Positions 16,336 through 32,600 of a stretch of DNA of 64,000 bases are shown here, in pieces. Location of the stretch: positions 704-64,703 of the forward strand of contig CAYZBH010000004.1 in the NCBI GenBank assembly GCA_964476605.1. Direction: 5' to 3'. Under the pieces are notes generated by a model. It saw only the letters and a list, made by a program, of their open reading frames with translations. It was not told the origin of the DNA and searched no databases. Both the position numbers and the translations under genes were made by a program. Origin of the DNA: an uncultured Thermoanaerobaculia bacterium. GTDB lineage: Bacteria; Acidobacteriota; Thermoanaerobaculia; Multivoradales; JAGPDF01. The first letter of the stretch is position 1; every line of letters starts with the position of its first letter.

Positions 16336-19300
16336 ATGAAGCAGAGTCACGCGTCCCTCGCTGGGGTAGTGGTCTCCTTGGGTCTGTGGGCCTTTGGGGG
16401 AATGGCCGCTGCGGAGGCCCCGCCGCTCCCGTCCTCTCGCTACGGGGCGGTCTCGCTGGCCGGAGCGCCGGCTCCCGACGGGACGGTGGTGTCGGCCCGC
16501 TTTGCGGGCTTGGAGGTCGCCGCCACCGTCGTTGACGCGTCGAGCGGAACCGCACGCTACCGCCTGGACGTGCCGGGGGACCGCGCCGAGACTCCGGAGA
16601 TCGAAGGTCCGGCGGAAGGGGAGCCCTTCGAGCTCCGGGTGGGGGGTGCGCTCGCCGCCACCGAGACCTGGCAGAGCGGTCTCTACACCGCCGCCGATCT
16701 CGCGACCGGCGGCGGCGCGGACCTCGCCGTCGCGATCGACGATGGAGTGACGTCGATCGCGGCCGGCGGATCGCTCGGCGCGGCGGTTTCGGTCGCGAAC
16801 CAGTCGTCGATGGCCGCCACTGGAGTCGATCTCGTGGTCGACCTTCCGACGGGAGCGGCATTGGTTTCGGCGAGTGACGGCGGTGCACTCGACGCGCAGG
16901 GACGCCTGCGGTGGCCCCAGTTCGCGATCTCCGGGGGCGATGGGGCGACGCGTTCGTTCGTCGCCCAGCTTCCGTCGGCCTACCCGGCCGGCATCGAGAT
17001 CGTCGAGACCCGGGTTGCCGTCCGCCATGACGGTGCCGAAGGCGGTGACCCCGACCCGTCGGACGACAGCGCGGGCGACGTCGACGCGCTCGAGGCTGCA
17101 CCCGATCTCGTGACGTCCGTGAGCGATGGCGCGTCGAGCGTCGCGCCTGGCAGCACGCTCTTCTACCGGACGACGGTCGCCAATTCCGGGACCCAGGGGG
17201 CGACCGGTGTCGAGTTGGAAGTGGCCCTTCCTTCAGGCGCCGAGCTCTTCTCGACGAGCCACGGGGGCCACGAGAGCGGCGGTGTCGTCCGTTGGCCGGC
17301 GGTCTCCTTGCCGGCGAGCGCCACCTTCGAACGAGTGATGACGCTACGCCTGCCGGAGGACCTGGATCCGGGTGTCGGGTCGCTCACCGTGCTCGCTCAC
17401 GCGGCCGATGACGGGACGAACGGCGACGACCTCGAGCCGGCCGACAACGACGCCATCGACGTGGACGGCGTCACGCACGCGCCCGATCTCGTGGCGAGGG
17501 AAGTATCCCGCTTCGGAACGACGACCGATCCCACGACGCTCGAGATCTCGGGAGAAGTTCTCGTGACGATGACGAATTCCGGGACCCTGGCCTCGGGGCC
17601 CTTCACCACCGTCGTGTTTCTCGATGTGAACGGCGACGGATCGTACGATCCGCTCGTCGATTCGGCTCTCGGTACCGCAGGCCACCTCTCACTGGTTCCG
17701 CAAGAAAGCAACTCCGTGCTCGTGCCGGTCGCGGGAACGGTGCCCTTCCTCGGCGATCGCCTCTTCGCCTTTCTCGACTCCGATCACGAGGTGAGCGAGC
17801 TGTCGGAGACGAACAACGTCGCGAACAGCTCGACGTCCTGCGGCGCGGTCCCGCCGCCCGAGAGCTTCGCGCCGCGGGTCGAGCTGAGTTGGCCACCTGC
17901 CGGGGGGCCCACCAACTTCCCGCGCGCGATCGATTCCCTCTCGACGCCCCTCGTCGTGCAGCTCACCGACGACAACGGCGATGGCCTCTGGAACGAGCTC
18001 GACATTCCAGACCTGGTCTTCGTCACGGCCGATCTGACCTATCTGCTCGAGCCGCAGGTCGCTCTGCGCGCCATCCGGGGAGGAAGCGGCACGCCGATCT
18101 TCGACGTCAACGGCTTCTTTCCGCACCCCACCAATCCCCAGCTCCTCTCCTTCTCGGGCCTCGCCGCCGGCGACATCGACAACGACGGCAAACCGGAGAT
18201 CCTCTCGACGACCTTCGGTCCGGCACCGTTCAACCAGATTCGGGCGTACGAGCACAACGGGGTACCGAAGTGGGTGAGCGCCGCCTATCGCACCCATCCG
18301 AGCCCCACCGGGCTCTCGAATCGCGACAACCCCACGATCGCCGATCTCGACGGTGACGGCTTCGCCGAAATCGTCGTCGGCGCCAACGTTTTCGACCGTT
18401 TCGGCCACCTCCTCTGGCGTGGCACCGGGGGGCAGGCCTTCCAGTCGTCCGGCAACTCGGGGGACCGGGGGGGAGCCATCTCGGTCGCCGCCGACGTCGA
18501 TCTCGACGGCCGGATGGAGGTCGTGACCGGCAACACGCTCTACCGGTGGAACGGCGAGATCGTCTGGCAGGTGCCCTGGCCCGACGGCTTCCCGGCGGTC
18601 GCCAACTTCGACGACGACCCACAGGCGGAGATCGTGGTGGTCTCGCAGGGGACGGTCCGTCTGCACGACACCGACGGGACCCTGATCTGGGGGCCCGTGA
18701 CGCTGCCCGGCTCGGATCCGGAGGCCGGGGGACCTCCGACCATCGGGGACTTCGATGGCGACGGGGCGCCGGAGATCGGGGTCGCGGGATCGGACGTCTA
18801 CGTCGCCCTCGACACCGACGGCTCGATCCTCTGGCAGGCGCAAACGCAGGACTACAGCTCCAACCTCACCGGCTCGACCACCTTCGACTTCGACGGCGAC
18901 GGTTGGCTCGAGATCATCTACCGGGACGAGCGGCGCCTGCGGATCTATCGGGGATACGACGGGGAGGTCCTGTTCGAGTCGGTGCTCTCGTCGAACACCC
19001 AAACCGAGGAGCCGGTCGTCGCCGACGTCGACCGCGACGGCAACGCCGAGATCGTGGTCACCTCGGATCGCGCACCCGACGTGCCGGTGGCTCCGGGGGA
19101 ACGCACCTACGGTCTGCGCGTCTTCGGGGATGCCGGTGACGGGTGGGTGGCGGCGCGGCCGATCTGGAATCAGCACGCCTACACTCCGGAGCTCGTGGAC
19201 ACGGACGCGGGGACGCCGGCTGTGCCCGCTTGGAGCTGGCTCGAGCACAACAGCTTCCGAGCCAACGTACCGCCGGGAGGAGACCCGACCGCGGCTCCGG

Positions 19301-22300
19301 ACCTGACGGCAAGCCGCCTCCTCGTGGATCTCTCCGCGCTGCCCCAGGTGTCGGCCTCGGTGCGCATCGGGAACGGCGGGCGCACTCCCGTCGGCCCTGG
19401 CCTGCCCGTGGCCTTCTTCGACGGCGATCCGCAGTCGGGCGGAGCCCTGATCACGACGAGGGAGGTTCCGCAGCCCTTGCTTCCGGGCGGCTACGCCGAC
19501 GTCTCCGTGAGCTTCCCTCTCGTGGCAGTTTCCTCCGGCCTCCTGGTGGTGGTTGCCGACCACGACGGGGTCTCGGGGCGGGAGCTCGAGTGCGACGAGG
19601 CGAACAACGTCGCGTCGGCCAGCCTCGATCTCACCTCGCTCGGGCTCTGGATCACGCTCGACGATGCCACCACGGCCGTCGGCGCGGGAGACGAGGTCGA
19701 AGTGATTCTCGCGGTCCACAACGCCTTCGCCGGAGCAGCTTCCGGCATCGCGGTCGAGGACACGCTTCCCCAACACACGCAGTTCGTTTCGGCGAGCGAC
19801 GGTGGTGCCGTGTCTGCGGGTGTCGTCTCGTGGCCCGCCTTCGGACTCGGGTCGGGCGAGACGAAGATCCTGCGCCTGACGTACGAGGTCGACCCCGCGA
19901 TTCCGATCGGCGTCACCAGTCTCACGAATCAAGCGACCGTCACCGACGACGGCTCGCAGGGACCCGATCCCTCCCCCGGGAACAACGTGGCGACCGACGT
20001 GAACACGGTGACCACGGTGACGGCGGACGCAGGCGGACCCTACCTGGCGGCGGAAGGGACGACGGTGCTCCTCGACGGCACGGCCTCATTCGATCGCGAC
20101 GGCACCATCGTCTCCTACCTCTGGGATCTCGACGGAGACGGGGAATACGACGACGCCAGCGGCCCGACCGTGCTTTGGTACGCGGCCGACGAGGGGGCAT
20201 TCACCGTCCGGCTCCAGGTGACGGACGACGCGGGCGAGATCGACGTCGACGCGGCTTCGGTGGTGATCTCGAACGTCGCGCCATCGATCGAAGCGCCGGC
20301 GGCGATCCCCGGAGAGGAGGGCGCTGCCCTGACCCTCGCGAGCGTCGTGGTGGGAGATCCGGGACTCGAGGACGGGCTCGTCGCCACGGTGGCGTGGGGG
20401 GATGGCGCCGAAGAGTCTTTCCCGGTTGCGCGCGGCAGCCTCGCTCGAGACCACACCTACCTCGAGGACGGTACCTACGCGATCGAGCTTTGCGTCGCCG
20501 ACGGAGACGGCGGGGAGACGTGCGCGGCGATCGCGGCGCAGGTGGCGAACGTCGCCCCGCGGATTCCGGTCGCCGTGGGCTACGACGTGCTGGGCTGGTC
20601 TCACGAAGAGTTGGGGGCCGGAGGGACGACCTCCTGGAACGTGGCTGGGGACGGCCTTTACGCGACGGAGCTCAGGAATGGGGAGCCGACGGTGCTGGTC
20701 GGGGATCTTCCGAGCCTCGGGGAGATCGCGTTCGACGTCCGGACGACCGACGGCGACGACGACTACTTCGGAGTCGCTGTCGGCTTCCATCCGGGCGATC
20801 TGGCCAACCACTCGGCCGACTACCTCCTGGTGGACTGGAAGGGAGGGGACCAGAGCGGCGCGCATCGCGGCCTCGCGCTCTCCCGCGTGCGCGGCGTGCC
20901 GATCCCCTCGGAGCTCTGGGCGCACTTCGACGCGGCCTCCAACGGCTCGGAGAACAGCGTCACGGAGCTCGCGAGAGGACTCACCCGCGGACATCAGGGC
21001 TGGCTCCGGAACACCGCCTATCGCTTCCGGCTGGAGGTCGGTTCCTCCCGCTTGCGCGTCTGGGTCGACGACGTGCTGGAGCTCGACTGGGCAGGATCGA
21101 TACCCGCCGGCGGGCTCGCGTTCTACGACTACTCGCAGGCGGCGACCACTTTCGCGACGGCCTCCTCGGCGCTCGCCCTCGGCGGCTCGGAGGGCGACTC
21201 GCTCGCGCTTCGCGCGCGCTTCTTCGACCAGGGAATCGAGGACACGCACACCGCGCGGGTCGCTTGGGGGGACGGCTCGGAGGAGTCGGTCCCTGTGGCC
21301 GAGGAACCGGGGGTCGGCGAGGTCCAGGCGACCCACGTCTACCCGGACGAGGGGGATCTGACGGCAGAAATCTGCGTCGCTGACGACGAGGGGGACGAAG
21401 GGTGCGCGGAGGTCCCGGTGCGCCTGGAGAACGTCGCGCCCACGCTGACCTGGATATTGACGACGACCGGATTCCGGGAGGATCCCGTGTCGCTCGCCGG
21501 GACGACCTTCACCGATCCGGGCATCCTCGATCTCCACAGCGCGACCGTCGACTGGGGTGACGGCACGGTCGAACCGGCGACGGTCATCGAGTCGAACGGC
21601 AGCGGCTCCGTCGAAGGGGCGCACGCCTACTCCTCGGCGGGGACCTACGCGCTCTCGCTCTGTCTCGACGACGGGGACGGAGGAGTGACCTGCGGGAACC
21701 GCACGCTCGAGCTGGTCGATCGCTTCCTGGATCTCGCGGTGACGAAGACGGTCTCGCCCGGGGAGGCACGGCCGGGCCAGCGAGTGACCTACGCGCTGAC
21801 GGTCACGAACCCAGGAACCCTGGCGGCCACGGGAGTGACTCTCACCGACCTCCTCCCGCAGCATCTCGGCTTCGTCAGCGCGAGTGGCGGCGGGACCCAC
21901 GCGAGCGGCGTGACGACGTGGGCGATCGGCACCCTCGCGCCGGGAGGCTCCGCGGTCGTGACGCTTCAGGCCGATGTCGCGGCGAGCGCGCCTTTCGGAG
22001 CCACGGTCTGGAACCACGCTTCCGTCGCGGACGACGGTGCCTCCGGCGCCGATGGAAATCCAGGAGACAACGAGGCTGCGGTACCTCTCCGCTTGAGCGA
22101 CTCCGTGACCCCGATCGTCACGATCGCCTCGCCGCTCGCCGGTACCGAGGGGCTGGCCCTCGCGCTCACGGGGGTCACCTTCGCGGATACCGCTCCCAGC
22201 CAGCGCCATACGGCGACCATTGACTGGGGCGACGGCACGACCGGCGCGGGAACCGTCACTCCCGCTTCCGGCCTGACCGGCACGATCGGCGGCTCTCACG

Positions 22301-25300
22301 TTTACGCCGACGACGGGATCTACCCGCTCGAGGTCTGTGTCACCGATCTGGGGTCCCATACGGGGTGCACGTCGGCAGCGATCACGATCGAGAACAGCAC
22401 TCCGGTGCTCCTCGACCCGGGTCCGGTCGACCTCCATCACTGGCGGGCGGAGGAGTACGCATCGACCGAAGCCCACGCGGACTGGCAGGTCGCGGCGGAC
22501 GGGCTCTCCGTTCATCAGGTCATCAACAGCACGCCGTCCGTCTTCGTCTCGCCGATCCCGGCGTTCGGAGTTCCCCTCGAAGGGATCATGAAGGTCGGTT
22601 GGGACGGGAACTGGGACAACGACTACATCGGCTTCGCGCTCGGGATCCACCGCGGAGACACCCTGAATCCGGACGCGGAGTGGTTGCTCGTCGATTGGAA
22701 GCAGGGGGACCAGACGGGCGCCCTTGCCGGCTTGGCGGTATCCCGCGTCTGGGGCATCCCGATGACCGGAGAGTTCTGGGTCCACACGGACAGCCCGGAC
22801 AACGGGCCGGAGAGTGGCGTCCAGGAGCTCGCCCGCGCCGCCACGCTGTCGCGCATCGGATGGACCGAGAACCGGGACTACCGCTTTCGCTTCGACTACG
22901 GGCCGACGCACCTGCGCATCTGGGTGAACGACGTGCTCCAGTTCGATCTCGTCGGAGCTTTCCCGGAGGGGGGCTTCGCCTTCTACAACTACTCGCAGCA
23001 GGACGTGCTCTACCGAGGCTTCACGGTCGGCGCCGAAGACCGCTTCGAGGGGGAGACCTTCGAGCTCATCGCGCCCTTCACTGATCTCGGCCCGATCGAC
23101 ACCTTCACAGGCGACGTCGTCTGGGACGACGGGGCGACGACCAGCGTCGTTCCCGAGGCGACCGGCGGATTCGGGGCGATTCGCGAGACCCATGTCTATC
23201 CGGACGACGGGGACTACGCGATCGGCGTCTGCGTCTCGGACGACGACAGCGCTACCGACTGCGGCTCCTTCCCGCTCCTGGTCTACAACCTGCCGCCGGT
23301 CGTGGAAGCCTCGGCGGAACTGATCGCGAGCGCGGGAATCGACCAAGCCTTCCCGCTCGCGACCTTCACCGACCCCGGCCGGCTCGACATCCACACCGCA
23401 ACGGTCTCCTGGGGTGACGGCGAGACCGGACCGGGGGACGTTTCGGAGGACGACGGGTCGGGAAGCGTCGCCGCGGTGCACGCGTATGCCGAGACCGGCG
23501 TCTATGGGGTGGAGATCTGCGTCGCGGACGACGATGGCGGCGTGGGCTGCGACACGACGGCGGTCACCGTGGGTGCGGAGCTGCCGGCGCTCGTCGCGAC
23601 GAAAGTCGTGACGCCGATCGACCTGGACGGCGACGGTCAGGTCACCCCGGGCGATCAGCTCGTCTATCGCGTCGAGATCGCGAACGTGGGAATCACTCCC
23701 GCGACCGGTATTCGTCTCACCGATCCCGTGCCGGCGCACACCGGGATCGTCGCGGGATCCGTGACGCCGGAGCTCTACGCCGTCGGAGAGGATCCCGTGA
23801 CGGTCGAAATCCCGACGCTCGCGCCCGGCGATTCGATGGTGGTGCAGTTCGTCGTGAGCATCGACACGCCACTCCCGACCGGCGTTCGCGAGATCGTCAA
23901 CAGCGGCACGGTGGAGGCGAACGAGGTCTCGCCGCTCCTCACGGACGACCCGTCGCTGCCCGGGCCGGCCGACCCTACGCGGATCCCGGTCGTGGTCTCG
24001 TCGGTGCTCGGGCTCGTGAAGACGGCGGAGCTCGTCGACCTCGACGGGGACGGCGTCGCGACGCCCGGAGACGAGATCCTCTGGCACGTCGAAGCGGCGA
24101 CCGGGGGCGACGTGGCGGCGACCGGCGTCCTCCTGCGCGATTCCATCCCCGAGAATTCGACGCTGGTGCCGGGTTCGGTCGTTGTCTCGCAGGGAACAGT
24201 CGTCGCCTTGGACCCGCTGACGGTCGCGATCGGCGATCTCGCGGTCGGTTCGCTGGTCACGCTCGAGATGCGGACCACGATCGATCCTGCGCTTCCGCCG
24301 GAGGTCACGGAGATCGCGAACCAGGCGTCGGTCGGCTCGACCGAGATCGACCTCCTGCTCTCGGACGATCCCGCGACACCGATCCCCGCTGATCCGACCG
24401 TGGTCCCGGTCTATCGCTATCCGGTGCTCTCGGTCGCTCCGGCGACGGTGGTCGAGGGGGATGCCGGTGTGACGCCTCTCCTCTTCACGGTGTCACTCGA
24501 CCGCGCGGTCACGGAGAGCGTGAGCGTTACTTGGAGCCTTGCCGACGGGACTGCGACGGCGGGAGAGGACTACGCGCCGGCCTCGGGCGTCGTCTCGATC
24601 CCCGCCGGAGCCACCGAAGCCACGGTGAGCGTCGACGTGCTCGGTGACCAGGTCGTCGAGGCGGACGAGACTTTCTCGGTGACGCTCGCGGAACCCGTTC
24701 TGGCGACGCTCGGCGTGGCGACGGCGACCGGCACGATCGTGAACGATGACGCGACCGAGCTCTTCGCCGCCGACGTGGCGGTCGAGGAGGGGGAGCCGGC
24801 GATCGTGAGCGTCGTGCTCACCTTCCCGAGCGCGCTGCCGGTGTCGGTCGCCTGGACGACGGCCGACGGCACGGCGGTGGCGGGGGAGGACTACGTGCCC
24901 GCGTCGGGTATCGTCGAATTCGCGCCCTTGCAGACCTCGCTCACGCTCGTCGTCGAGACGATCGAGGAGGAGGTTCAGGAGGAGGACGAGACGCTCAGCG
25001 TTCTCTTCTCGGCGCCGCTCGGTGCGGGTCTGCCCGATCCGGAAGCGATCGTGACGATCCTCGACGACGACACGCCCGACTGCGCTCTCACCTGTCCCGA
25101 GCGGCTCGTCGTTGCGAACGATCCCGCCCTCTGCGGGGCGTCCGTCGTATTACCCGATCCCTCGAGCGTGGGGGAGTGCGGCGAGGTGTTCTGCGCTCCA
25201 GCGTCGGGCGAGTTCTTCCCGGTGGGGGTGACGACGGTCGTTTGCACCGCCGGCGCGGTCGCGGTGAGTTGCACGTACGAGGTCGAAGTGCAGGATCTCG

Positions 25301-25905
25301 AGCCGCCGGAGGTGGAAGCGCCGGAGCTCGCTGTGGGGAACGATGCCGGGCTCTGCTCCGCGGTCGTGTCGTTCGAGGCCACGGCTAGCGACAACTGCCC
25401 GGGTCTCAGCGCTCTCACCTGCGCTCCATCCTCCGGGACCTCCTTCCCGGTTGGCACGACGCCGGTGAGCTGTTCGGTCGCCGATGCGGCCGGGAACAGC
25501 GCGTTCGATAGCGGTCGCGTCGAGGTTTCGGACCTCGAGGCGCCGATCCTCGACAGCTGTCCGGACGACGTGACCCTGGAGCTCCCTCCTGGCACCGAGA
25601 GCTGGCGGGTCGAATTCGCCCTTCCGCCCGGGTCGGACAACTGCCCGGGCCTGTTGATCGACTGCGTCCCGGCCTCTGGGAGCGACTTCCCGATCGGAAG
25701 CACGGAGGTCCTCTGTACCGCGATCGACGGTGCGGGTCTCCAAGCGAGCTGTGACTTCGTGGTCGATCTCTCGGCGCTCTCGGTGCTCGAGATTCCGACC
25801 CTTTCGGGACGGAGCCTGGCGCTTTTCGCGCTGATGCTCGGAGCAGGAGGAGGACTTCTCATTCGTCGGCGGAGGGGGTCGGCTAGCATGCGAGGAAACC
25901 GATGA
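16336..25905 (+). CDS. Giant (3,189 aa) secreted multidomain adhesin: DUF11 conserved repeats, FG-GAP/integrin-alpha-like beta-propeller, PKD-like repeats, two LamG/ConA-like modules, two Calx-beta domains, four HYR-like Cys-bounded modules, C-terminal IPTL-CTERM-like sorting tail
   Basis: - Signal peptide: MKQSHASLAGVVVSLGLWAFGGMAAAEA.
- DUF11-like: VTNTG/LTVTNPGTLAATGVTLTDLLPQHLGFVSASGGG.
- FG-GAP: DIDNDGKPEIL, DLDGDGFAEIVVG, DFDGDGAPEIGVA, DFDGDGWLEIIY, DVDRDGNAEIVV.
- PKD-like: xWGDG....HxYxxxGxYxxxxCVxDDDGG..C, about 6 copies.
- Calx-beta: TVVEGDAGVTPLLFTVSLDRAV...ETFSV.
- HYR-like: C...CGASVV...C.P.SGS.FPVG.T.V.C.A, 4 copies.
- C-terminal tail: EIPTLSGRSLALFALMLGAGGGLLIRRRRGS (motif + TM + basic). 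Confidence 0.85.
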   Translation: MKQSHASLAGVVVSLGLWAFGGMAAAEAPPLPSSRYGAVSLAGAPAPDGTVVSARFAGLEVAATVVDASSGTARYRLDVPGDRAETPEIEGPAEGEPFELRVGGALAATETWQSGLYTAADLATGGGADLAVAIDDGVTSIAAGGSLGAAVSVANQSSMAATGVDLVVDLPTGAALVSASDGGALDAQGRLRWPQFAISGGDGATRSFVAQLPSAYPAGIEIVETRVAVRHDGAEGGDPDPSDDSAGDVDALEAAPDLVTSVSDGASSVAPGSTLFYRTTVANSGTQGATGVELEVALPSGAELFSTSHGGHESGGVVRWPAVSLPASATFERVMTLRLPEDLDPGVGSLTVLAHAADDGTNGDDLEPADNDAIDVDGVTHAPDLVAREVSRFGTTTDPTTLEISGEVLVTMTNSGTLASGPFTTVVFLDVNGDGSYDPLVDSALGTAGHLSLVPQESNSVLVPVAGTVPFLGDRLFAFLDSDHEVSELSETNNVANSSTSCGAVPPPESFAPRVELSWPPAGGPTNFPRAIDSLSTPLVVQLTDDNGDGLWNELDIPDLVFVTADLTYLLEPQVALRAIRGGSGTPIFDVNGFFPHPTNPQLLSFSGLAAGDIDNDGKPEILSTTFGPAPFNQIRAYEHNGVPKWVSAAYRTHPSPTGLSNRDNPTIADLDGDGFAEIVVGANVFDRFGHLLWRGTGGQAFQSSGNSGDRGGAISVAADVDLDGRMEVVTGNTLYRWNGEIVWQVPWPDGFPAVANFDDDPQAEIVVVSQGTVRLHDTDGTLIWGPVTLPGSDPEAGGPPTIGDFDGDGAPEIGVAGSDVYVALDTDGSILWQAQTQDYSSNLTGSTTFDFDGDGWLEIIYRDERRLRIYRGYDGEVLFESVLSSNTQTEEPVVADVDRDGNAEIVVTSDRAPDVPVAPGERTYGLRVFGDAGDGWVAARPIWNQHAYTPELVDTDAGTPAVPAWSWLEHNSFRANVPPGGDPTAAPDLTASRLLVDLSALPQVSASVRIGNGGRTPVGPGLPVAFFDGDPQSGGALITTREVPQPLLPGGYADVSVSFPLVAVSSGLLVVVADHDGVSGRELECDEANNVASASLDLTSLGLWITLDDATTAVGAGDEVEVILAVHNAFAGAASGIAVEDTLPQHTQFVSASDGGAVSAGVVSWPAFGLGSGETKILRLTYEVDPAIPIGVTSLTNQATVTDDGSQGPDPSPGNNVATDVNTVTTVTADAGGPYLAAEGTTVLLDGTASFDRDGTIVSYLWDLDGDGEYDDASGPTVLWYAADEGAFTVRLQVTDDAGEIDVDAASVVISNVAPSIEAPAAIPGEEGAALTLASVVVGDPGLEDGLVATVAWGDGAEESFPVARGSLARDHTYLEDGTYAIELCVADGDGGETCAAIAAQVANVAPRIPVAVGYDVLGWSHEELGAGGTTSWNVAGDGLYATELRNGEPTVLVGDLPSLGEIAFDVRTTDGDDDYFGVAVGFHPGDLANHSADYLLVDWKGGDQSGAHRGLALSRVRGVPIPSELWAHFDAASNGSENSVTELARGLTRGHQGWLRNTAYRFRLEVGSSRLRVWVDDVLELDWAGSIPAGGLAFYDYSQAATTFATASSALALGGSEGDSLALRARFFDQGIEDTHTARVAWGDGSEESVPVAEEPGVGEVQATHVYPDEGDLTAEICVADDEGDEGCAEVPVRLENVAPTLTWILTTTGFREDPVSLAGTTFTDPGILDLHSATVDWGDGTVEPATVIESNGSGSVEGAHAYSSAGTYALSLCLDDGDGGVTCGNRTLELVDRFLDLAVTKTVSPGEARPGQRVTYALTVTNPGTLAATGVTLTDLLPQHLGFVSASGGGTHASGVTTWAIGTLAPGGSAVVTLQADVAASAPFGATVWNHASVADDGASGADGNPGDNEAAVPLRLSDSVTPIVTIASPLAGTEGLALALTGVTFADTAPSQRHTATIDWGDGTTGAGTVTPASGLTGTIGGSHVYADDGIYPLEVCVTDLGSHTGCTSAAITIENSTPVLLDPGPVDLHHWRAEEYASTEAHADWQVAADGLSVHQVINSTPSVFVSPIPAFGVPLEGIMKVGWDGNWDNDYIGFALGIHRGDTLNPDAEWLLVDWKQGDQTGALAGLAVSRVWGIPMTGEFWVHTDSPDNGPESGVQELARAATLSRIGWTENRDYRFRFDYGPTHLRIWVNDVLQFDLVGAFPEGGFAFYNYSQQDVLYRGFTVGAEDRFEGETFELIAPFTDLGPIDTFTGDVVWDDGATTSVVPEATGGFGAIRETHVYPDDGDYAIGVCVSDDDSATDCGSFPLLVYNLPPVVEASAELIASAGIDQAFPLATFTDPGRLDIHTATVSWGDGETGPGDVSEDDGSGSVAAVHAYAETGVYGVEICVADDDGGVGCDTTAVTVGAELPALVATKVVTPIDLDGDGQVTPGDQLVYRVEIANVGITPATGIRLTDPVPAHTGIVAGSVTPELYAVGEDPVTVEIPTLAPGDSMVVQFVVSIDTPLPTGVREIVNSGTVEANEVSPLLTDDPSLPGPADPTRIPVVVSSVLGLVKTAELVDLDGDGVATPGDEILWHVEAATGGDVAATGVLLRDSIPENSTLVPGSVVVSQGTVVALDPLTVAIGDLAVGSLVTLEMRTTIDPALPPEVTEIANQASVGSTEIDLLLSDDPATPIPADPTVVPVYRYPVLSVAPATVVEGDAGVTPLLFTVSLDRAVTESVSVTWSLADGTATAGEDYAPASGVVSIPAGATEATVSVDVLGDQVVEADETFSVTLAEPVLATLGVATATGTIVNDDATELFAADVAVEEGEPAIVSVVLTFPSALPVSVAWTTADGTAVAGEDYVPASGIVEFAPLQTSLTLVVETIEEEVQEEDETLSVLFSAPLGAGLPDPEAIVTILDDDTPDCALTCPERLVVANDPALCGASVVLPDPSSVGECGEVFCAPASGEFFPVGVTTVVCTAGAVAVSCTYEVEVQDLEPPEVEAPELAVGNDAGLCSAVVSFEATASDNCPGLSALTCAPSSGTSFPVGTTPVSCSVADAAGNSAFDSGRVEVSDLEAPILDSCPDDVTLELPPGTESWRVEFALPPGSDNCPGLLIDCVPASGSDFPIGSTEVLCTAIDGAGLQASCDFVVDLSALSVLEIPTLSGRSLALFALMLGAGGGLLIRRRRGSASMRGNR

Positions 25906-28900
25906 TGTGCGCCAAGCGATCGATGTTCGGCGACGGCCAGAGGCTGGTTGCGAGGTTGCTGATCGCCGCCTCGCTCCTGCCGACCGGGCCGGTGATGGGC
26001 CTGGGTCTCCTCGCGCCCGAGGAGCTCGGAATCGCCGTCGTGGAGCGCGTCCCCCTCGACGGGCGAGAGCTCACCGTCCGGGTGCGCACCACCACCTTCG
26101 ACGTCGTTCGCGATCGGGCCGCGCGAGTCTGGAGCAGCTGGCCGCCGCGCTTCGCGCGCTTCAGCGTTTTCGAGCTGCCGACGTGGATTTCGGCTAGGGG
26201 GGGCTCGGGCGGGTCGCTCCCGTTCACCGGTGGCGGCCCTAGGAACGCGCTGCTGCGCTGGCTGCAAGCGGACGGCGCGACGACCTCGGGCTCCTCGGTC
26301 CCTGCGCCGCAGGCGCAACCCGCTGCCGGCGATCCCTCGGACCCCTGGGGGATTCGCGAGGGATGGCGGCGGCCGGTCCTTCCGGCGCCACCGACGCCTC
26401 CGGATTTCGCTCTGCCTTCGCCCGGCGGGGCGGCGAACGCCGTCGCGCGACCGGGGACGCTTCGGCCGGCGGCGCCGGTGCCGCTCGCGCCGGCGTGGAA
26501 TCTGGTTTCGATCTCGTGGACGCCGGGCGATCCGTCGCCTGCGGCGGTGCTCGCCCCGGTCGCGTCGTCGATCGTCCGCGCGTTCGCCTTCGACGCTTGC
26601 GATCCCTCGGATCCTTGGAAGCTTTACGACCCGAGCGACCCGGGTGAGAGCGACCTCGCCGCGATCACGCCGGCGAAGGGGTTCTGGCTCGAGACGACGG
26701 GCGCCTCGACGATTCCGGAGGCGGGGCCGGAGCCGGCCGAGACGTCGATTCCGCTCTGCGTCGGCTGGAATCTCGTCGGCTTCCCCCGCTCTTCGTCGCA
26801 GGCGGTCGCCACGGCGCTCGCGACGATCGCCGGCCGCTATCTCCGTGTCTTCGGGTTCGATCCGAGCGATGCCGCCGACCCCTGGGAGGTCTACGACGTC
26901 GGCGTGCCGGCGTGGGCGAACGACCTCCAGGAGATGCGTCCCGGACGCGGCTACTGGATCTACGCCACCGAGGCGACGACCCTGGTGGTCTCGAACTCGA
27001 CCGATGCTCCGACGGTTTCGTTCGTCGCGCCGGCCGATCTCGCCGAGGTCACGGAGCGGGCGCCGGTCGTCGGGACGGTGCGCTCGACGTCGCTCGCCGG
27101 GTGGGAGCTCTCCTTCCGCGAGGCTGGCGTGGGAGGTTGGACCTCGCTCGCCACCGGCATTGCGCCCGTGGAAGCGAGTCCGCTCGCGACTTTCGATCCG
27201 ACCCTCCTCGAGAACGGGCTCTACGAGCTGCGGCTGCACGCGGTCGACACGCTGGGCCAGGTGGACGAGGCGACGATCGCGCTCTCGGTCGAGGGGCAGC
27301 AGAAGATCGGGCACTTCTCGCTCACCTTCGTCGATCTCGAGGTGCCGCTCGCCGGGCTGCCGATCCAGGTGCTGCGCGGCTACGACTCGAGGCGACGCGG
27401 CTCCTCCGGCGACTTCGGGTACGGGTGGAAGCTCGAGCTCAAGAGCGGCACGCTCCGCCACAACCGGATCCCGGGCGAAGGGTGGCAGCTCGCGGGGGGC
27501 TTCCTGCCGTGCGAAGCCTCGTACGAGCTCGACTCGCACCAGTCGACGGTACGTCTCTCGGATCGGGAGGTCTACCGCTTCCGGCCGGTGCTCTCGAGCC
27601 TCACACCGACGGCGGGGGGATGCTTCGCGACCTTCGGCTATGCGTTCGTGGACGGGCCGATTCCCGGTGCCACTCTGGAGGTCGTCGGAAACCGCCAGGT
27701 CTTCTACACCAACGGCGGCACCCAGCTCGTCGACACCGAGAGCTTCACCCTCTACGAGCCGGCGAAGGTCCGCCTGAGAACTCGCGACGGCCGCCAGTTC
27801 GAGCTCGACCGGCCGAACGGCGTCACCCGAATCGTCGACGCCAACGGCAATCGCATCGACTTCACGCCGACCGGCATCAGCCACTCGAACGGCGTGTCGA
27901 TCGTCCTCGAGCGGGACGGGCAGGGGCGGATCACCCGCGTCGTCGACCCGGCGGGAGCGGAGCTCCTCTACGGCTACGGTGGATCCGGGGACCTCGCGAC
28001 GTTTACCGATCGCGCGGCGAGCGTCACCAGCTTCGCGTACGGCGCCGGGCACTATCTGACGGAGATTCACGATCCGCTGGGGCGGACGCCGATCCGCAAC
28101 GAGTACGGTCCCGACGGGCGGCTCACGCGGCACGTCGATGCCTTCGGGCACGAGATCCTCTACGACCACCAGCTCGACGGCCGTCGTGAGGTGGTGACCA
28201 ACCGGCTCGGCGCCTCGCGCCTGCTCGACTACGACGCTCGCGGCAACGTCGTGCACGAGGTGGACGAGACGGGCCTCTCGACCGTTCGCACCTTCGACGC
28301 CGACGACCAGCTCCTTTCGGAGTCGATCGGCGGCCTGCCGGCCACGACCTACGCGTACGACGCCAACCGGAACCTGACGCGCACGACCGATCCGCTCGGG
28401 CACGCGACCCTCTTCACCTACGACGCCAAGGGAAACGTTCTCACGACGACCGACCCGCGCGGCGCGGTGACGACGAACGCCTACGACGCACGGGGCAACC
28501 TCGTTTCGACGATCGATCCGGCGGGCGGCTCCACGGCCTACACGTACGACGCGAAGGGAAATCTCCTCTCCGAGACCGACGCGCTCGGCCACGCGAGCGC
28601 CTTCGTCTACGACGCGCGCGGAAACCTCACGCGCGAGACCGACGCGCTCGGGAGCGTCGCGACCTACAGCTACGACACGCTCGGCAACCGGCGCTCCGAG
28701 ACCCGCACGCGCACGCTCCCCGACGGGACTCTCGAGCCGCAGGTCACGGGCTACATCTACGACGCGATGGGGCGCCTGCTCGCGACCACCGCGCCCGACG
28801 GCTCGGTGACCCGCTCGGAGTACGACGCGTTGGGCAACGTCGCGGCGACGGTCGACGCGCTCGACCGGCGCACCGAGCACACCTACGACGCGCTCGGCCG

Positions 28901-31736
28901 GATGACGCGAACCGACTACGCGGACGGTACGCACGACGCAGCCGGCTACGACGCAGAGAACCGGCGGACGACTTTCATCGATCGCGGGGGCCGGACGACG
29001 ACTTACGAGTACGACGCCGCCGGGAGGCTGCGCCGGACCTACTACCCGGACGGCGCCGTCGTCGAGCAGGTCTACGACGTCGCGGGGCGGTTGAGCTCGA
29101 CGATCGATCCGCGCGCGCACGCGACGGCCTACGGGTACGACGCCGCGGGCCGCCGAACGTCGGTCACCGACGCCCTGGGGCATATGACCTCGTGGAGCTA
29201 CGACGCGGCGGGGAACGCGACGTCGGTGACCGACGCGCGCGGCTTCACGACGGCGTCGCTCTACGACGCGCTGGGGCGGCTCACTCGGACGGTCTTTCCG
29301 GACGGGACGGAGCGGCGGACGGAGTACGACGCGTTGGGCCGCCGGACGGCCGAGATCGACGAAGCCGGGGCGCGAACCGAGTTCGGGTACGACGCTGTCG
29401 GCCGCCTGGTCTCGGTGACCGACGCGCTCGGCCAGGTGACCTCTTACGGCTACGACGAGGTCGGGAACCGGATCGCGCAGACCGACGCCAACGGCCACGT
29501 CACGCGCTTCGAGCTCGACAGTCTCGGCCGTCAGACGAAGCGGATCCTCCCCGGCGGAGCGGAGGAGCGCTTCACTTACGACGCCGCCGGGCAGCGCCGG
29601 ACCCGGACCGCCTTCGACGGGGTGGTCACCCACTACGCCTACGACCTCGCGGGGCGGCTTGCGACGCGCACCTATCCGGGCGGACGCGTCGAGAGCTTCA
29701 CCTACACGCCGAGCGGGCGGCGCGCGACGGCGACCGACGCGCGCGGCACGACGAGCTACGGTTACGACGCCCGGGATCGCGTCACGTCGATCCTCTCGCC
29801 GGACGGCCGGAGCCTCGCCTTCGCCTACGACCTCGCGGGCAACCGCTTGTCGACCACGGCCGATGTCGCTGGGCAGTCCCTTCCGACGCAGTACACCTAC
29901 GACGCCCTCAACCGCCTGGAGACGGTGACCGACCCGGACGGGAAGGTCACGGTGCACGGCTACGACGCCAACGGCAACCGGGAGAGCCTCGCCTTTCCGA
30001 ACGGCGTCGCGACGGTCTACGACTACGACGCACGGAACCGGCTGACGCACCTCGTGGCGGTCTCGCCGGTCTCGGGGGTGGTTTCGAGCTACGCCTACAC
30101 GCTTTCGCCGACCGGCAACCGGGCGCGGATCGAAGAGCAGGACGGGACGACGCGGAGCTACGGCTACGACGCGCTCTACCGGCTGACCGACGAGCAGGTG
30201 ACGTCGAGCCCGGCGCCCGGGAGCCCGACCCTCTGGCGGAACGTCTTCGGCTACGACCCAGTGGGGAACCGCCTGACCCAGCAGCGCACCGAAACGACGG
30301 GCGGCACGCACTCGGTGGCCTACGGCTACGACGCGAGAGACCGCCTGCTCACGGAAGACAGCACGACCTACGGCTGGGACGAGAACGGCAACCTGACCAG
30401 CAAGAGCGGCCCCGAGGGCGCGACCTACGTCTGGGACGACGAGAACCGCCTGACCGCGGTGAACCTCGCGAACGGCACGGTCGTCGAGCACACCTACGAC
30501 GTCGACGGCACGAGGATCAGGACGCGGACGACCCCGGCGACGGGACCCCCCACGACGACCGACTACCTCGTCGACCCCTGGCACCAGACGAGCGCGGCCG
30601 GCCGAGGCCTCGTCCTCAGCCAAGTCATAGCCGAAACCGACGAAGCCGGGAACCTCACCGCCTACCACGTCCGAGGCGACGACCTTCTCGCGACCCTGCG
30701 GCCCAACCCGACGCCACCGCCTGGCGAATCCCCCTGGATCGCGCGCTACCTCCACGCCGAAGGGATCGGGACCGTCCGGGCGCTCACGGACGAGCAAGGC
30801 AACGTCACCGATCGGTACACCCTCGAGGCGTTTGGAACGCTGCTGGATCACCTCGGGGACGATCCGAACGCGTACCTCTTCGCGGGGGAGCCGCTCGATC
30901 CGAATTCGGGCTTCTATTACAACAGGGCGAGGTGGGTGGATTCGAGGGCGGGGAGATTCGAAAGTGCTGATCCCCGCGTTGGATCCAGCTTCGAGCCTCT
31001 GACGCTTCACAGGTACCTTTACGCGGGCGCGAGTGCCACGAACCTTGTCGACCCGTCCGGGGAGGACTTCCAGGCCGTAGCTCTAGCCGCGGTGAACGCA
31101 GCGATCGGAATCCTGCAAACTGCACTTGTCTTCTCCGTTCTTGGTGCAATTGGTGGCGCTGCTGATGCTTACTTCGCCGAAGCTGATGTGGCAGCTGGTT
31201 TTGTCAGCGGGATGAAGGTCGGGTTCGCAACGGGCCTCCTCTGGCGACTCAAGTTCCTGCGGCCAACACTGACGGCACTTGGCCTGACGCTTGGCGCGAC
31301 GGCAACGTTTCAGGCGTTCATGGACGGCGACACAGGGCTCGCACTGTTCAGGGGCATCGTGTTCGTCGCTGGCGTTGCCGGAGTAGTCACGGCTGGTGGA
31401 ACGCATCCCGGCGGAGAGATGATCGTGTATCGCTCGGTCAACTCGGCGACCGGTGAGATCCAATATGTGGGCATCACAAGGAACCTTGCAGCCCGCGCTG
31501 CTGCGCACCTGCGCCAGAAGGGAATCGAAATTGAGCCGATTGGTGGGATTGAGGACTTGAGTATGACCGATGCCCGGAATGTCGAGGAAGCTCTCATCGT
31601 CTACTACGGGCTCGGCAAGAACGGAGGTACGCTGCTAAATAGAATCCACAGCATCTCACCACGAAGCCCAATATACGCTGAGCGGCTCTCTCGGGGCGTG
31701 CAGTTGCTTCGCGGAGCAGGTTACCCAGACATCTAG
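25902..31736 (+). CDS. RHS/YD-repeat polymorphic toxin (Tc-toxin BC-fusion-like): signal/Pro-rich N-terminus, SpvB-like domain, >40 YD repeats, RHS-associated core, C-terminal hydrophobic linker + GIY-YIG-type nuclease toxin domain
   Basis: - Start ATGA overlaps the stop of the upstream adhesin (translational coupling).
- SpvB-like: VPLAGLPIQVLRGYDSRRRGSSGDFGYGWKLEL.
- Dozens of YDxxGNL / YxYDxxGRL repeats.
- RHS core: VDPWHQTS...YYNRARWVDSRAGRFESADP...HRYLYAGASATNLVDPSGE.
- C-terminal ~245 aa is lower-GC and contains GEMIVYRSVNSATGEIQYVGITRN...R...H...E..LI...N (GIY-x11-YVG, R, E, N motifs). Confidence 0.85.
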   Translation: MMCAKRSMFGDGQRLVARLLIAASLLPTGPVMGLGLLAPEELGIAVVERVPLDGRELTVRVRTTTFDVVRDRAARVWSSWPPRFARFSVFELPTWISARGGSGGSLPFTGGGPRNALLRWLQADGATTSGSSVPAPQAQPAAGDPSDPWGIREGWRRPVLPAPPTPPDFALPSPGGAANAVARPGTLRPAAPVPLAPAWNLVSISWTPGDPSPAAVLAPVASSIVRAFAFDACDPSDPWKLYDPSDPGESDLAAITPAKGFWLETTGASTIPEAGPEPAETSIPLCVGWNLVGFPRSSSQAVATALATIAGRYLRVFGFDPSDAADPWEVYDVGVPAWANDLQEMRPGRGYWIYATEATTLVVSNSTDAPTVSFVAPADLAEVTERAPVVGTVRSTSLAGWELSFREAGVGGWTSLATGIAPVEASPLATFDPTLLENGLYELRLHAVDTLGQVDEATIALSVEGQQKIGHFSLTFVDLEVPLAGLPIQVLRGYDSRRRGSSGDFGYGWKLELKSGTLRHNRIPGEGWQLAGGFLPCEASYELDSHQSTVRLSDREVYRFRPVLSSLTPTAGGCFATFGYAFVDGPIPGATLEVVGNRQVFYTNGGTQLVDTESFTLYEPAKVRLRTRDGRQFELDRPNGVTRIVDANGNRIDFTPTGISHSNGVSIVLERDGQGRITRVVDPAGAELLYGYGGSGDLATFTDRAASVTSFAYGAGHYLTEIHDPLGRTPIRNEYGPDGRLTRHVDAFGHEILYDHQLDGRREVVTNRLGASRLLDYDARGNVVHEVDETGLSTVRTFDADDQLLSESIGGLPATTYAYDANRNLTRTTDPLGHATLFTYDAKGNVLTTTDPRGAVTTNAYDARGNLVSTIDPAGGSTAYTYDAKGNLLSETDALGHASAFVYDARGNLTRETDALGSVATYSYDTLGNRRSETRTRTLPDGTLEPQVTGYIYDAMGRLLATTAPDGSVTRSEYDALGNVAATVDALDRRTEHTYDALGRMTRTDYADGTHDAAGYDAENRRTTFIDRGGRTTTYEYDAAGRLRRTYYPDGAVVEQVYDVAGRLSSTIDPRAHATAYGYDAAGRRTSVTDALGHMTSWSYDAAGNATSVTDARGFTTASLYDALGRLTRTVFPDGTERRTEYDALGRRTAEIDEAGARTEFGYDAVGRLVSVTDALGQVTSYGYDEVGNRIAQTDANGHVTRFELDSLGRQTKRILPGGAEERFTYDAAGQRRTRTAFDGVVTHYAYDLAGRLATRTYPGGRVESFTYTPSGRRATATDARGTTSYGYDARDRVTSILSPDGRSLAFAYDLAGNRLSTTADVAGQSLPTQYTYDALNRLETVTDPDGKVTVHGYDANGNRESLAFPNGVATVYDYDARNRLTHLVAVSPVSGVVSSYAYTLSPTGNRARIEEQDGTTRSYGYDALYRLTDEQVTSSPAPGSPTLWRNVFGYDPVGNRLTQQRTETTGGTHSVAYGYDARDRLLTEDSTTYGWDENGNLTSKSGPEGATYVWDDENRLTAVNLANGTVVEHTYDVDGTRIRTRTTPATGPPTTTDYLVDPWHQTSAAGRGLVLSQVIAETDEAGNLTAYHVRGDDLLATLRPNPTPPPGESPWIARYLHAEGIGTVRALTDEQGNVTDRYTLEAFGTLLDHLGDDPNAYLFAGEPLDPNSGFYYNRARWVDSRAGRFESADPRVGSSFEPLTLHRYLYAGASATNLVDPSGEDFQAVALAAVNAAIGILQTALVFSVLGAIGGAADAYFAEADVAAGFVSGMKVGFATGLLWRLKFLRPTLTALGLTLGATATFQAFMDGDTGLALFRGIVFVAGVAGVVTAGGTHPGGEMIVYRSVNSATGEIQYVGITRNLAARAAAHLRQKGIEIEPIGGIEDLSMTDARNVEEALIVYYGLGKNGGTLLNRIHSISPRSPIYAERLSRGVQLLRGAGYPDI

Positions 31737-31744
31737 CGGGAGAG

Positions 31745-32221
31745 TTGCAATTGACAAAGATAGGCGACGTCTTCGGAATCCAGACCAAGATTGGGCTAGC
31801 CCTCTTTCAGGTTACTCACCGCCATTCGCAGCTGGGTCACCTGATCCGAGTTCTTGAAGGTCACTTCTCTGTTTGCCCGGAAGACCTGGAGGTACTAGTG
31901 ACTCGGCCTCATCGATTCCTCACTTTCTTTCCAGTTACTGCCGCCGAGAAGCGAGGCATCATCAGGAAGGTGGGGAGCCTCGGAGTTCCGGAGTCTTGCA
32001 AGGCGTTTCCAGTGTTTCGCGCGGCCGGTGCAACTGATCGAAAGGGAAGGGTGCTGACCTGGTGGCTCTGGGATGGTTCGCGAAGTTGGCCAGCTGGAGA
32101 TTTGAGCGACGAACAGCGAAAGCTCCCCATACGAGCGGTCTGGAACGACACTCTGCTGATTGAGCGGATTGACGCTGGATGGACGCCGGAGTCTGACGCT
32201 AGAGGGGAGAAGATGGGCTGA
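31745..32221 (+). CDS. Putative cognate immunity protein for the RHS C-terminal nuclease
   Basis: 158-aa ORF starting 9 bp after the RHS stop, same strand. Lies in the same low-GC tract as the toxin tip. No signal peptide and no recognisable family. Position and composition are the only evidence. Confidence 0.45.
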   Translation: MQLTKIGDVFGIQTKIGLALFQVTHRHSQLGHLIRVLEGHFSVCPEDLEVLVTRPHRFLTFFPVTAAEKRGIIRKVGSLGVPESCKAFPVFRAAGATDRKGRVLTWWLWDGSRSWPAGDLSDEQRKLPIRAVWNDTLLIERIDAGWTPESDARGEKMG

Positions 32222-32261
32222 AGACGGCGCTCAGAAGACGGCGCTCAAGGAAGAGAGGTCC

Positions 32262-32600
32262 GAAAAGGTGCCAGCCGTTTCTCCGAAGCTTCTAGAGGCA
32301 TCTTGAATTCGAGAGCGGATCTCTTGGGCAGCAATCTCCCGCGACGAGGTTCTGTGGCGAGATGAAGGGCTCGTGGCCTCGGCAGTAGCGCGCGGAGATT
32401 CGCCCCAAAATGATGCCAACATGGTGCCAGCCGTTTTTCTGGACTGCTGAAGCGAAAAGGGGAAAAGGTGCCAGCCGTTTTCCTAGTTTTCCTAGGCTTC
32501 TTCAGGCATCTTGAATTCGAGAGCGGTTCTCTTGGGCAGCAAACTCTCGCGGCGAGGTTCTGTGGCGAGAAGAAGGGCTCGTGAACAGCGGCGGTAGCGC
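32262..32600. repeat. Direct repeat array, period ~199 bp (2 full copies + partial), each copy beginning with a REP-like GGTGCCAGCCGTTT core
   Basis: 32262-32395 and 32461-32600 align at ~85% (GAAAAGGTGCCAGCCGTTT...CATCTTGAATTCGAGAGCGG.TCTCTTGGGCAGCAA.CTC.CGCG.CGAGGTTCTGTGGCGAGA.GAAGGGCTCGTG). A partial third REP sits at 32423-32438. Non-coding. Lies between the immunity gene and the 3' end of the RAYT gene. Confidence 0.6.

Follow-up and report, generated by a model that had tools for sequence, protein, structure and literature searches.

A conserved pairing of giant adhesin and RHS toxin genes in Acidobacteriota and Chloroflexota: a possible two-protein counterpart of teneurins and WapA

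Introduction

The closest described relatives of the locus considered here include the WapA-type toxins of Bacillus subtilis and Streptococcus suis (PMC12704120), in which a rearrangement hotspot (RHS) cocoon carries an N-terminal signal peptide instead of a PAAR or LXG domain, ends in a polymorphic toxin followed by an immunity gene, and is displayed on the cell surface for contact-dependent competition. The locus lies in a stretch of 64,000 nucleotides (hereafter the window) from an uncultured Thermoanaerobaculia bacterium of the Acidobacteriota (assembly GCA_964476605.1, contig CAYZBH010000004.1, positions 704 to 64,703 of the forward strand), and consists of a gene for a giant adhesin of 3,189 residues whose stop codon overlaps the start of a gene for an RHS polymorphic toxin. 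Relatives of the two genes lie side by side in either order, or are fused, in Acidobacteriota and Chloroflexota, and these comparisons support the view that adhesin and toxin behave as one unit. By analogy, the pair would work most like the WapA-type, Sec-dependent RHS toxins and the teneurins.

The window toxin shares with the WapA type the RHS cocoon, an N-terminal leader and a variable C-terminal tip followed by a putative immunity gene, and a similar surface display for contact-dependent competition may be supposed. No PAAR, LXG, SpvB or TPS domain was found on it with Pfam or NCBIfam models. However, the wall-binding region of WapA is part of the same polypeptide, whereas the adhesion modules of the window are on a separate protein (fused to the toxin in two loci, L077 and L083; L-numbers denote the loci compared below); moreover, WapA-type toxins belong to Gram-positive bacteria, whereas the host of the window is a diderm acidobacterium, and the leader of its RHS protein is accompanied by modules, termed here DPWK. 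Teneurins and bacterial teneurin-like YD proteins also combine a YD/RHS shell with adhesion arrays (Ig-like, lectin-like and beta-propeller domains), surface display and a nuclease-type C-terminus. In teneurins these are held in one chain and an NHL propeller plugs the shell, whereas in the window the shell and the adhesion array are encoded by separate genes, so that the locus may be seen as a bacterial 'split' counterpart of the teneurin architecture. The features that differ from both WapA and the teneurins are this division into two proteins and the presence of the DPWK modules on the toxin and of a further domain, termed N-dom, on the adhesin. A first-pass annotation, made from the window sequence alone, had regarded the arrangement as undescribed, and in the searchable literature no description of the adhesin-RHS pairing, of N-dom or of DPWK was found.

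Other systems are less similar. In Tc complexes an RHS cocoon gene also lies beside that of a very large partner, and orphan cocoon genes occur elsewhere in the genome; nevertheless, TcA is an alpha-helical pentameric injector, whereas the window adhesin is anchored, adhesin-like and predicted to be all-beta over residues 1-1100, the window cocoon is one protein and not TcB plus TcC, and the gene order is variable. The CdiA/CdiB systems (type V secretion system) likewise employ a giant surface filament or adhesin for target binding, a polymorphic toxin with its immunity gene, and orphan toxin modules, but the window toxin is part of an RHS cocoon on a second protein and is not at the tip of the filament. 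No TPS domain, FHA repeat or CdiB was among the Pfam/NCBIfam matches of the adhesin or its neighbours, PAAR and VgrG were not found on the RHS protein or neighbouring open reading frames (ORFs) and no such family recurs in 79 related loci, and no genes for type VI secretion (T6SS), Tc or contact-dependent inhibition (CDI) systems were among the scanned window ORFs (Pfam/NCBIfam). The parts that define Tc, T6SS-Rhs and CDI systems were tested for and are absent, so that the locus belongs to none of the three.

How signal-peptide-only RHS toxins reach their target cells is, to our knowledge, poorly understood. A conserved and sometimes fused giant-adhesin partner would offer a concrete and testable answer for RHS delivery in two poorly studied soil and sediment phyla, and the unit points to an undescribed, T6SS-independent form of RHS display. 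In an existing classification, toxins of this kind were filed under 'T2SS', the type II secretion system (PMC3482391).

Organisation of the gene pair

The pair and its junction are placed as follows.

16336-25905, plus strand: giant adhesin gene, 3189 aa, ATG start (ORF call and translation).
25902-31736, plus strand: RHS polymorphic toxin gene, 1944 aa, ATG start (ORF call, Pfam and NCBIfam).
25902-25905, plus strand: ATGA overlap, shared by the start codon of the RHS gene and the stop codon of the adhesin gene (sequence).

From position 25900 the sequence reads cgATGAtg (…AAC CGA TGA TG…), with the RHS ATG at 25902-25904 overlapping the adhesin TGA at 25903-25905; ORF calls and sequence agree on this overlap, as the first-pass annotation had described it. 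An earlier RHS start is ruled out because a stop codon lies in the RHS frame five codons 5' of the ATG at 25902, and the possible starts are this ATG, the next ATG at 25905 or a later in-frame start, of which Met8 is the next. The leader encoded directly after the ATG at 25902 is kept in homologues, and a GAGGA Shine-Dalgarno-like motif lies approximately 8 nt 5' of the RHS start. No operon junction is commoner in bacteria than a 4-nt ATGA overlap; taken alone, such an overlap is a mark of co-orientation and tight packing and is not proof of coupling. The window junction was also scanned for an independent promoter or terminator, and neither promoter-like nor terminator-like sites were found; of the three findings that the first-pass annotation had named as refuting its reading (such sites, adjacency not conserved in relatives, and a tail without a match to the sorting-signal models), none was obtained. 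In addition, adhesin and RHS genes are present together on an independent Logan assembly contig. A programmed -1 frameshift fusing the adhesin to the RHS protein was considered and rejected on inspection of the sequence, because the junction lacks a slippery heptamer and is immediately preceded by the sorting tail of the adhesin.

Conservation of the adhesin-RHS adjacency

Relatives of the RHS leader were found in metagenome-assembled genomes (MAGs) of Thermoanaerobaculia and other Acidobacteriota, and a genome scan (78 loci) extended them into Chloroflexota. All ORFs were clustered across 79 loci with RHS relatives and the window, and genes were called by an ORF heuristic guided by the guanine plus cytosine (GC) content of third codon positions (GC3). 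Several of the assemblies are long-read assemblies with frameshifts (L002, L004, L086), and the flanks extended to at most 10 kb, so that many loci could be judged on one side only. The RHS family was present in 72 loci, that of the giant adhesin in 30 and every other family in four or fewer; the giant adhesin is the sole recurrent neighbour of the RHS family. The adhesin was on the same strand as the RHS gene in every case, in one of two arrangements.

Upstream order, as in the window: the adhesin gene ends at the RHS start (13 loci, and L086).
Downstream order: the adhesin gene starts 2-1,500 nt past the RHS stop (15 loci, and L088, L090-L092 and L093).

The order of adhesin followed by RHS, which the first-pass annotation had described, held in 13 of the 65 loci that could be judged upstream, but it is the minority arrangement, the adhesin being found more often downstream (14 of 38 loci judgeable on that side). 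Where both sides could be judged, 17 of 33 loci were linked. Junctions of the upstream order in relatives range from a TGATG overlap (L002, L008, L011, L017) through a 1-nt gap (L026, L086) to a spacing of approximately 14-20 nt (L013, L044), with a Shine-Dalgarno-like motif in the junction of L044. The downstream order is a true alternative, because in L088 the adhesin is complete and no RHS gene follows it. In a crude, unbootstrapped neighbour-joining tree of the adhesin mid-region the two arrangements are interleaved, and the order would therefore have changed at least twice while the adjacency was kept.

Each of the eight MAGs with at least three such RHS loci has one adhesin-linked locus (one MAG has two), as though a single scaffold served several toxins. 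When the adhesin was taken as the starting point of the search, four of six independent places proved to be linked to RHS. Moreover, a single ORF of 4127 aa in L077 (Anaerolineae) unites N-dom, F5/8C, PKD, DUF11, DPWK and RHS regions, and L083, also from Anaerolineae, has the same architecture up to the end of its contig. A further candidate, L024, was rejected as an N-dom-RHS fusion, its N-dom lying in a separate ORF of 249 aa in another frame. Identities to the window are roughly parallel across loci, at 37-60% for the adhesin and 47-66% for the RHS protein, and the two families are linked in approximately 28 independent loci from two phyla. The suggestion of the first-pass annotation that the pair forms one functional unit, for which it had proposed a check of adjacency in related genomes, is supported by the adjacency conserved in many relatives, by the fusions and by the scans of the window junction; as far as can be read from genomes, adhesin and RHS would behave as one unit, in either order or fused, in Acidobacteriota and Chloroflexota.

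The N-dom and DPWK domains

Each of the two window proteins carries, close to its N-terminus, a domain that has no Pfam match.

16417-16725, plus strand: N-dom of the adhesin, a beta-sandwich of approximately 100 aa directly after the signal peptide (hidden Markov model (HMM), 122 bits; predicted local distance difference test (pLDDT) 83-90 in an AlphaFold2 (AF2) model).
26478-26996, plus strand: DPWK module of the RHS protein, two tandem beta-sandwich domains of approximately 90 aa (DPWK HMM, 294 bits; pLDDT >85).

N-dom is characterised by the motif PPLPSS.YG...YRLDVPGD...EG, and the DPWK module by the motifs WNL.S...DPWK.YDP...GFW and GWNL.GFP...DPWEVYD...PGRGYWI. With the N-dom HMM, built from alignment A4, the adhesin is the sole match in the 64-kb window. 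N-dom was found in 35 of the fetched loci, always on the RHS strand and either at the start of the giant protein or at the start of a small secreted protein beside a DPWK gene, and nowhere else in approximately 1.3 Mb of flanking sequence of these loci. A collection of 5.8 billion proteins contained 244 relatives of N-dom, and the best-scoring 120 of the 244 are all stand-alone proteins of 122-195 aa; a metagenome scan with a narrowed N-dom alignment returned 5 loci.

The two domains also accompany each other outside the RHS family. DPWK ends a CBM96/fn3 protein in L082, a Golvesin_C protein in L084 and an M23 peptidase in L085, and an N-dom gene comes after each. Two further loci, L094 and L095, were fetched from the N-dom side without reference to RHS, and each has one N-dom gene directly after the C-terminal DPWK of a large Flg_new/fn3 protein, while the N-dom gene that had been looked up is itself preceded by a protein without a DPWK match. 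What is conserved is therefore the relationship of N-dom and DPWK, which adjoin on non-RHS proteins also; in the particular instance of the window, N-dom stands at the front of a giant adhesin and DPWK at that of an RHS toxin. It may tentatively be proposed, at odds well short of even, that N-dom and DPWK form a cognate docking pair, comparable in logic to cohesin and dockerin, which loads secreted cargo onto N-dom scaffolds in Acidobacteriota and Chloroflexota, the window then being an adhesin-mounted cocoon without parts of the T6SS, the type VII secretion system or Tc. The cargo may include RHS cocoons, the M23 peptidase and the CBM, fn3 and Flg_new proteins, while either giant adhesins or the small N-dom proteins that stand alone may act as scaffolds. 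The likeness to the cellulosome is a functional analogy only, in that DPWK is found on diverse cargo beside N-dom on scaffold-like proteins. The co-occurrence could help to find a wider family of surface-assembly systems, and the pair would be of greater interest if binding were demonstrated.

Proteins consisting of a signal peptide and N-dom only (approximately 125-250 aa) are encoded directly after RHS or other DPWK genes in L056, L064 (9360-9863), L066, L067, L024, L084, L090, L094 and L095. Small N-dom genes are often present in two or three tandem copies (L067, L084, L090, L094, L095), and none was found in the window with the N-dom HMM. For annotation, it follows that small secreted N-dom ORFs after Chloroflexota RHS genes should not be called immunity proteins by position alone. 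As a separate observation, an exhaustive phmmer search with the DPWK region (window 26455-27011) gave one weak match in 1.84 billion cluster representatives, in discrepancy with the 115 encoded relatives found in GTDB genomes.

The giant adhesin

The adhesin comprises a Sec-type signal peptide, N-dom, DUF11/CARDB repeats, an FG-GAP propeller, PKD domains, two LamG/TSP_C-like lectin modules, Calx-beta and HYR domains and an IPTL-CTERM tail, of which two elements are of particular relevance.

18133-19170, plus strand: integrin-like FG-GAP beta-propeller (FG-GAP_3 in four stretches, FG-GAP also matched; Foldseek matches to Bap1 and integrin alpha).
25792-25875, plus strand: IPTL-CTERM sorting signal, made up of the IPTL motif, a hydrophobic helix and an RRRR cluster (TIGR04174).

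Pfam matched DUF11 in six stretches (232 bits), PKD_4 in six, Calx-beta in two and HYR in two, together with TSP_C at 32.3 bits (cutoff 25.6), a family with the LamG/ConA-like lectin fold, so that all of the modules named in the first-pass annotation (FG-GAP, DUF11, PKD-like, LamG-like, Calx-beta and HYR) were recovered. The AF2 model of residues 1-1100 is all-beta, and the remainder is covered by beta-domain families (Pfam). In Foldseek searches the best solved-structure match of this model was the Vibrio biofilm adhesin Bap1 (6mlt; E = 1.5e-18, 21% identity), with integrin alpha chains next, and it is the propeller that dominates the structure matches of the 1100-residue model. The likeness to Bap1/RbmC and integrin alpha concerns the FG-GAP propeller region, which matches Bap1 best, whereas the solved Bap1 chain has approximately 600 residues and the adhesin of the window has in addition N-dom, a sorting tail and modules of the DUF11, PKD, LamG-like, Calx-beta and HYR types. 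We know of no link between Bap1 and an RHS toxin. The central part of the giant protein is composed differently in Chloroflexota, from modules such as F5/8C, cadherin-like and Big_9.

The adhesin ends in EIPTLSGRSLALFALMLGAGGGLLIRRRRGS followed by seven further residues, ASMRGNR*; the tail as quoted in the first-pass annotation was correct in sequence, but the protein continues for these seven residues. Its layout is EIPTL-SGRSLALFALMLGAGGGLLI-RRRR, with nine residues from there to the stop. Assignment to the IPTL-CTERM class, as first suggested, is borne out by TIGR04174, whose score for the last 101 aa, scanned alone, was 22.6 bits (cutoff 20.5) and which was not listed in a scan of the whole 3189-aa protein. 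The IPTL motif, transmembrane helix and C-terminal Arg cluster are those of the class and the score exceeds the curated cutoff, but by 2 bits; the consensus of the class is IPTLxxWG, whereas the window motif is IPTLSGRS, without WG, and most orthologues have no such tail. The cognate enzyme of IPTL-CTERM (TIGR04174) is exosortase H (XrtH), and no exosortase was found among the scanned ORFs of the 64-kb window.

Tails of IPTL type were found in two other orthologues, L008 (EIPAL...GRRSL) and L089 (EIPTL...RGRRS). Most adhesin orthologues end instead in an unannotated, Cys-flanked helical domain of approximately 110 aa, which replaces the HYR repeats and IPTL tail of the window and has the pattern C.RSPGYWKNH ... 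LNL..GS.PWI ... PPGS.P.G ... LKDQLD.YNN.GC. This alternative C-terminus gave no match in Pfam and was located in L002 (approximately 9700-10000), L011, L013, L017, L026, L050, L052, L086 and L088. Exosortase surface anchoring would thus be a lineage-specific addition, because the IPTL tail is present in three orthologues only (window, L008 and L089), and the description of the giant protein as surface-anchored in this way would not extend to most orthologues.

The RHS toxin and its putative immunity gene

The RHS protein is composed, in order, of a signal-like leader, a low-complexity linker, the tandem DPWK module, an Ig-like domain, the RHS shell, a core end with the motif DPSGE, and a C-terminal toxin. 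Its C-terminal part and the gene after it are placed as follows.

30828-31061, plus strand: RHS-associated core domain, with a DPSGE motif of the autoproteolysis type (aa 1717-1721) at its end (TIGR03696).
31062-31733, plus strand: C-terminal toxin tip, two strongly hydrophobic segments followed by a URI/GIY-YIG-like nuclease region (approximately 31422-31526) (Pfam, structure match, motif, hydropathy and GC content).
31745-32221, plus strand: putative immunity gene, 158 aa, TTG start, 9 nt past the RHS stop, low GC (position only).

RHS_repeat PF05593 matched in 20 stretches (E = 2.5e-142) and TIGR01643 in 18, and the core model TIGR03696 scored 51.8 bits against a cutoff of 32.5 over aa 1643-1720, after which a tip of 224 aa follows. 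The match to TEN_YD-shell, at 24.4 bits, is far under its cutoff of 50 (Pfam). In the leader, which is kept in homologues, a basic n-region precedes the hydrophobic stretch LLIAASLLPTGPVMGLGLL (KD15 maximum 1.67); more distant RHS homologues have textbook AxA leaders. The AF2 model of residues 190-465 consists of three beta-sandwiches (pLDDT >85), for which Foldseek returned generic Ig-like strings only (SiiE, GbpA and complement MG domains) and no functional clue. With its repeats, its core end and its variable tip, the window protein is a member of the RHS polymorphic-toxin family, the immunity gene being putative.

The tip weakly matches PDB 2lwf (E = 0.02), deposited as monothiol glutaredoxin-S16, a chain that contains the GIY-YIG domain of that protein. 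The residue signature of Tox-URI1 is Y, YxG, R, [RK]xxE and N (PMC3482391), and the residue pattern of the tip fits it. The identity of the predicted tip domain as a URI/GIY-YIG nuclease is weakly indicated by these comparisons; PADLOC gave no match on the tip. The tblastn alignment of L002 to the window RHS protein ends at residue 1807, within the tip, and GC content, 69.7% over the whole window, falls from approximately 0.70 to a range of 0.55-0.61 exactly where the tip and the 158-aa ORF after it lie (window 31000-32500), which fits a recently exchanged toxin/immunity cassette. Small ORFs come after the RHS stop in most relatives, and the 158-aa ORF is a putative immunity gene by position only.

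In L061 (15211-15213), L079 (15679-15706), L049 (9242-9296) and L063 (15127-15203), from Chloroflexota and Acidobacteriota, there is no room for an intervening immunity gene, because the downstream adhesin gene starts 2-76 nt past the RHS stop. The RHS proteins of L049 and L079 carry a C-terminal tip of 100-265 aa despite this gene-free gap. RHS genes with the DPWK leader also form tandem arrays (RHS, small ORF, RHS), as in L005 and L006 (both MAG GCA_039932055.1), L035, L040, L050 and L058; such arrays are sometimes broken by IS21 or rve transposases, and assemblies typically end inside them.

Proposed mechanism and alternative explanations

The reading that we prefer, at a probability of roughly 50%, is that the locus encodes a split teneurin-like or WapA-like system that displays a contact-dependent toxin, with a URI/GIY-YIG tip and an immunity gene. 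Adhesin, RHS protein and immunity protein are probably a three-gene competition module transcribed as one operon. Both large proteins would be exported by Sec, as their N-terminal leaders suggest. The adhesin would form an all-beta array of lectin-like and Ig-like modules around its integrin/Bap1-like propeller, held on the cell in this lineage by the IPTL-CTERM (exosortase-type) anchor, and the RHS cocoon would enclose the toxin, made up of the hydrophobic segments and the URI/GIY-YIG nuclease. The RHS protein may be tethered to the adhesin or co-displayed with it, with the N-dom of the adhesin and the DPWK module of the toxin as the likely points of contact, and the adhesin would supply binding to the target cell or to matrix. 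After contact the hydrophobic segments may help the URI nuclease into the target, and the product of the downstream ORF would protect siblings, the whole being equivalent to a teneurin-like or WapA-like protein divided into two polypeptides.

Several observations weigh against this reading. The IPTL anchor is confined to the three orthologues named above, and the adhesin C-terminus that lies beside the RHS start is not conserved. In 16 of the 33 loci judgeable on both sides the RHS paralogue, although it has the DPWK leader, lies beside neither an adhesin nor an N-dom gene, and L005, L006, L007 and L010 have a leader of the window type and no adjacent adhesin; conversely, adhesin orthologues without an adjacent RHS gene are present in L087 (a truncated copy) and L089 (full length and IPTL-tailed). 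The match of the tip to PF01541 (E = 0.002, 18.7 bits) is below the cutoff of 22.6, the product of the 158-aa ORF has no match in Pfam, NCBIfam or PADLOC, and no similarity links it to the ORF that comes after a related toxin tip in L093. No conserved secretion genes that might serve for passage through the outer membrane of the diderm host recur near the 79 related loci. Signal peptides were judged by eye and hydropathy, and all comparison sequences are MAGs or metagenome contigs.

The RHS paralogues without a neighbouring adhesin, the solitary adhesins of L087 and L089 and the variable gene order are also what would be expected if the two proteins were co-regulated but physically independent, the adhesin serving in aggregation, biofilm formation or attachment and the RHS protein being released separately against non-kin, with linkage reflecting shared regulation and co-inheritance. 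The best structural match of the adhesin, Bap1, is a biofilm matrix protein, and contact between adhesin and RHS protein is itself only inferred. Such independence is nevertheless difficult to reconcile with the natural fusions of L077 and L083, which unite both functions in one polypeptide, with an association at the level of two specific domains that extends to non-toxin proteins and is hard to explain by shared regulation alone, and with the one linked locus in each multi-RHS genome; it is the main rival explanation, albeit a less likely one than the reading above. A more specific version of the docking proposal, in which small N-dom proteins are the repeating unit of an extracellular fibre or scaffold, the giant adhesin is a specialised member (for example, its tip) and DPWK proteins are the cargo, would account for the small, stand-alone, secreted nature of the best-scoring 120 of 244 N-dom proteins (122-195 aa), for the frequency of two or three tandem N-dom copies and for the diversity of DPWK cargo. 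It is unlikely, since no assembly machinery is conserved near the related loci and the window has no small N-dom gene.

The first-pass annotation had compared the giant protein with TcA carrying TcB-TcC. On that view it would be a device for translocation, into which the RHS cocoon is received and by which the toxin is injected. Adjacency and overlap of the two genes are in its favour, and integrin-like propellers fused to RHS repeats have been recorded in TcdB/TcaC-type proteins (PMC3482391), alongside which the FG-GAP propeller of the adhesin might be set. However, in Pfam scans at E ≤ 0.01 neither VRP1 nor TcA_TcB_BD nor neuraminidase-like TcA domains were matched on the adhesin, and neither SpvB nor TcdB mid domains nor a propeller on the RHS protein; residues 1-1100 of the adhesin are predicted to be all-beta with Bap1 and integrin as structural matches, and the rest consists of beta-domain families; the RHS N-terminus is formed by three Ig-like sandwiches in place of a TcB propeller; and the adhesin carries a membrane anchor in this lineage. 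The analogy is therefore disfavoured and a TcA-like carrier is very improbable. Chance, or hitch-hiking of mobile RHS cassettes that land beside genes for large surface proteins, might be suspected from the RAYT transposase and REP-like repeats that flank the module, from insertion sequence (IS) elements near some relatives and from the deviant GC of the toxin tip, but it is effectively refuted by the approximately 28 independent linked loci in two phyla, always on the same strand, by the roughly parallel identities of adhesin and RHS protein to the window (37-60% and 47-66%), by the existence of fusions and by the restriction of N-dom to just 244 of 5.8 billion proteins.

Surroundings of the locus

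The downstream boundary of the unit is formed by a transposase and its associated repeats.

32260-33777: RAYT/IS200-like tyrosine transposase (32759-33688, minus strand) with REP-like repeats (Y1_Tnp and REP_Tyr_transpos).

On one side of the transposase gene there are three REP-like repeats that contain GGTGCCAGCCG, as well as a direct repeat of 97 nt; on the other, the complementary motif is present as two perfect copies of 27 nt. Transposases related to that of the window are found in L033 and L070. Upstream of the adhesin lies a DUF1579 gene on the opposite strand, and just upstream, at 8714-14932, are a 1225-aa ELWxxDGT-repeat protein and then two PilT/T2SSE-type ATPases. The PilT-like ATPases (12482-14932) were considered as a dedicated export system and rejected, as they, like the rest of this neighbourhood, are not recurrent in related loci. 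Further along, at 46369-51201 on the minus strand, a group of ORFs with lower GC3 encodes a PIN-domain protein (46369-46776), a Tdi1_C-like protein of the T6SS-immunity type (49251-49742) and an Mrr restriction endonuclease (50296-51201), and may be an orphan immunity or defence islet. At 55906-58776 there is a homologue of the ExeM/NucH family of extracellular endonucleases (956 aa), beside a SpoIIE/PP2C-like phosphatase and a TonB-dependent receptor.

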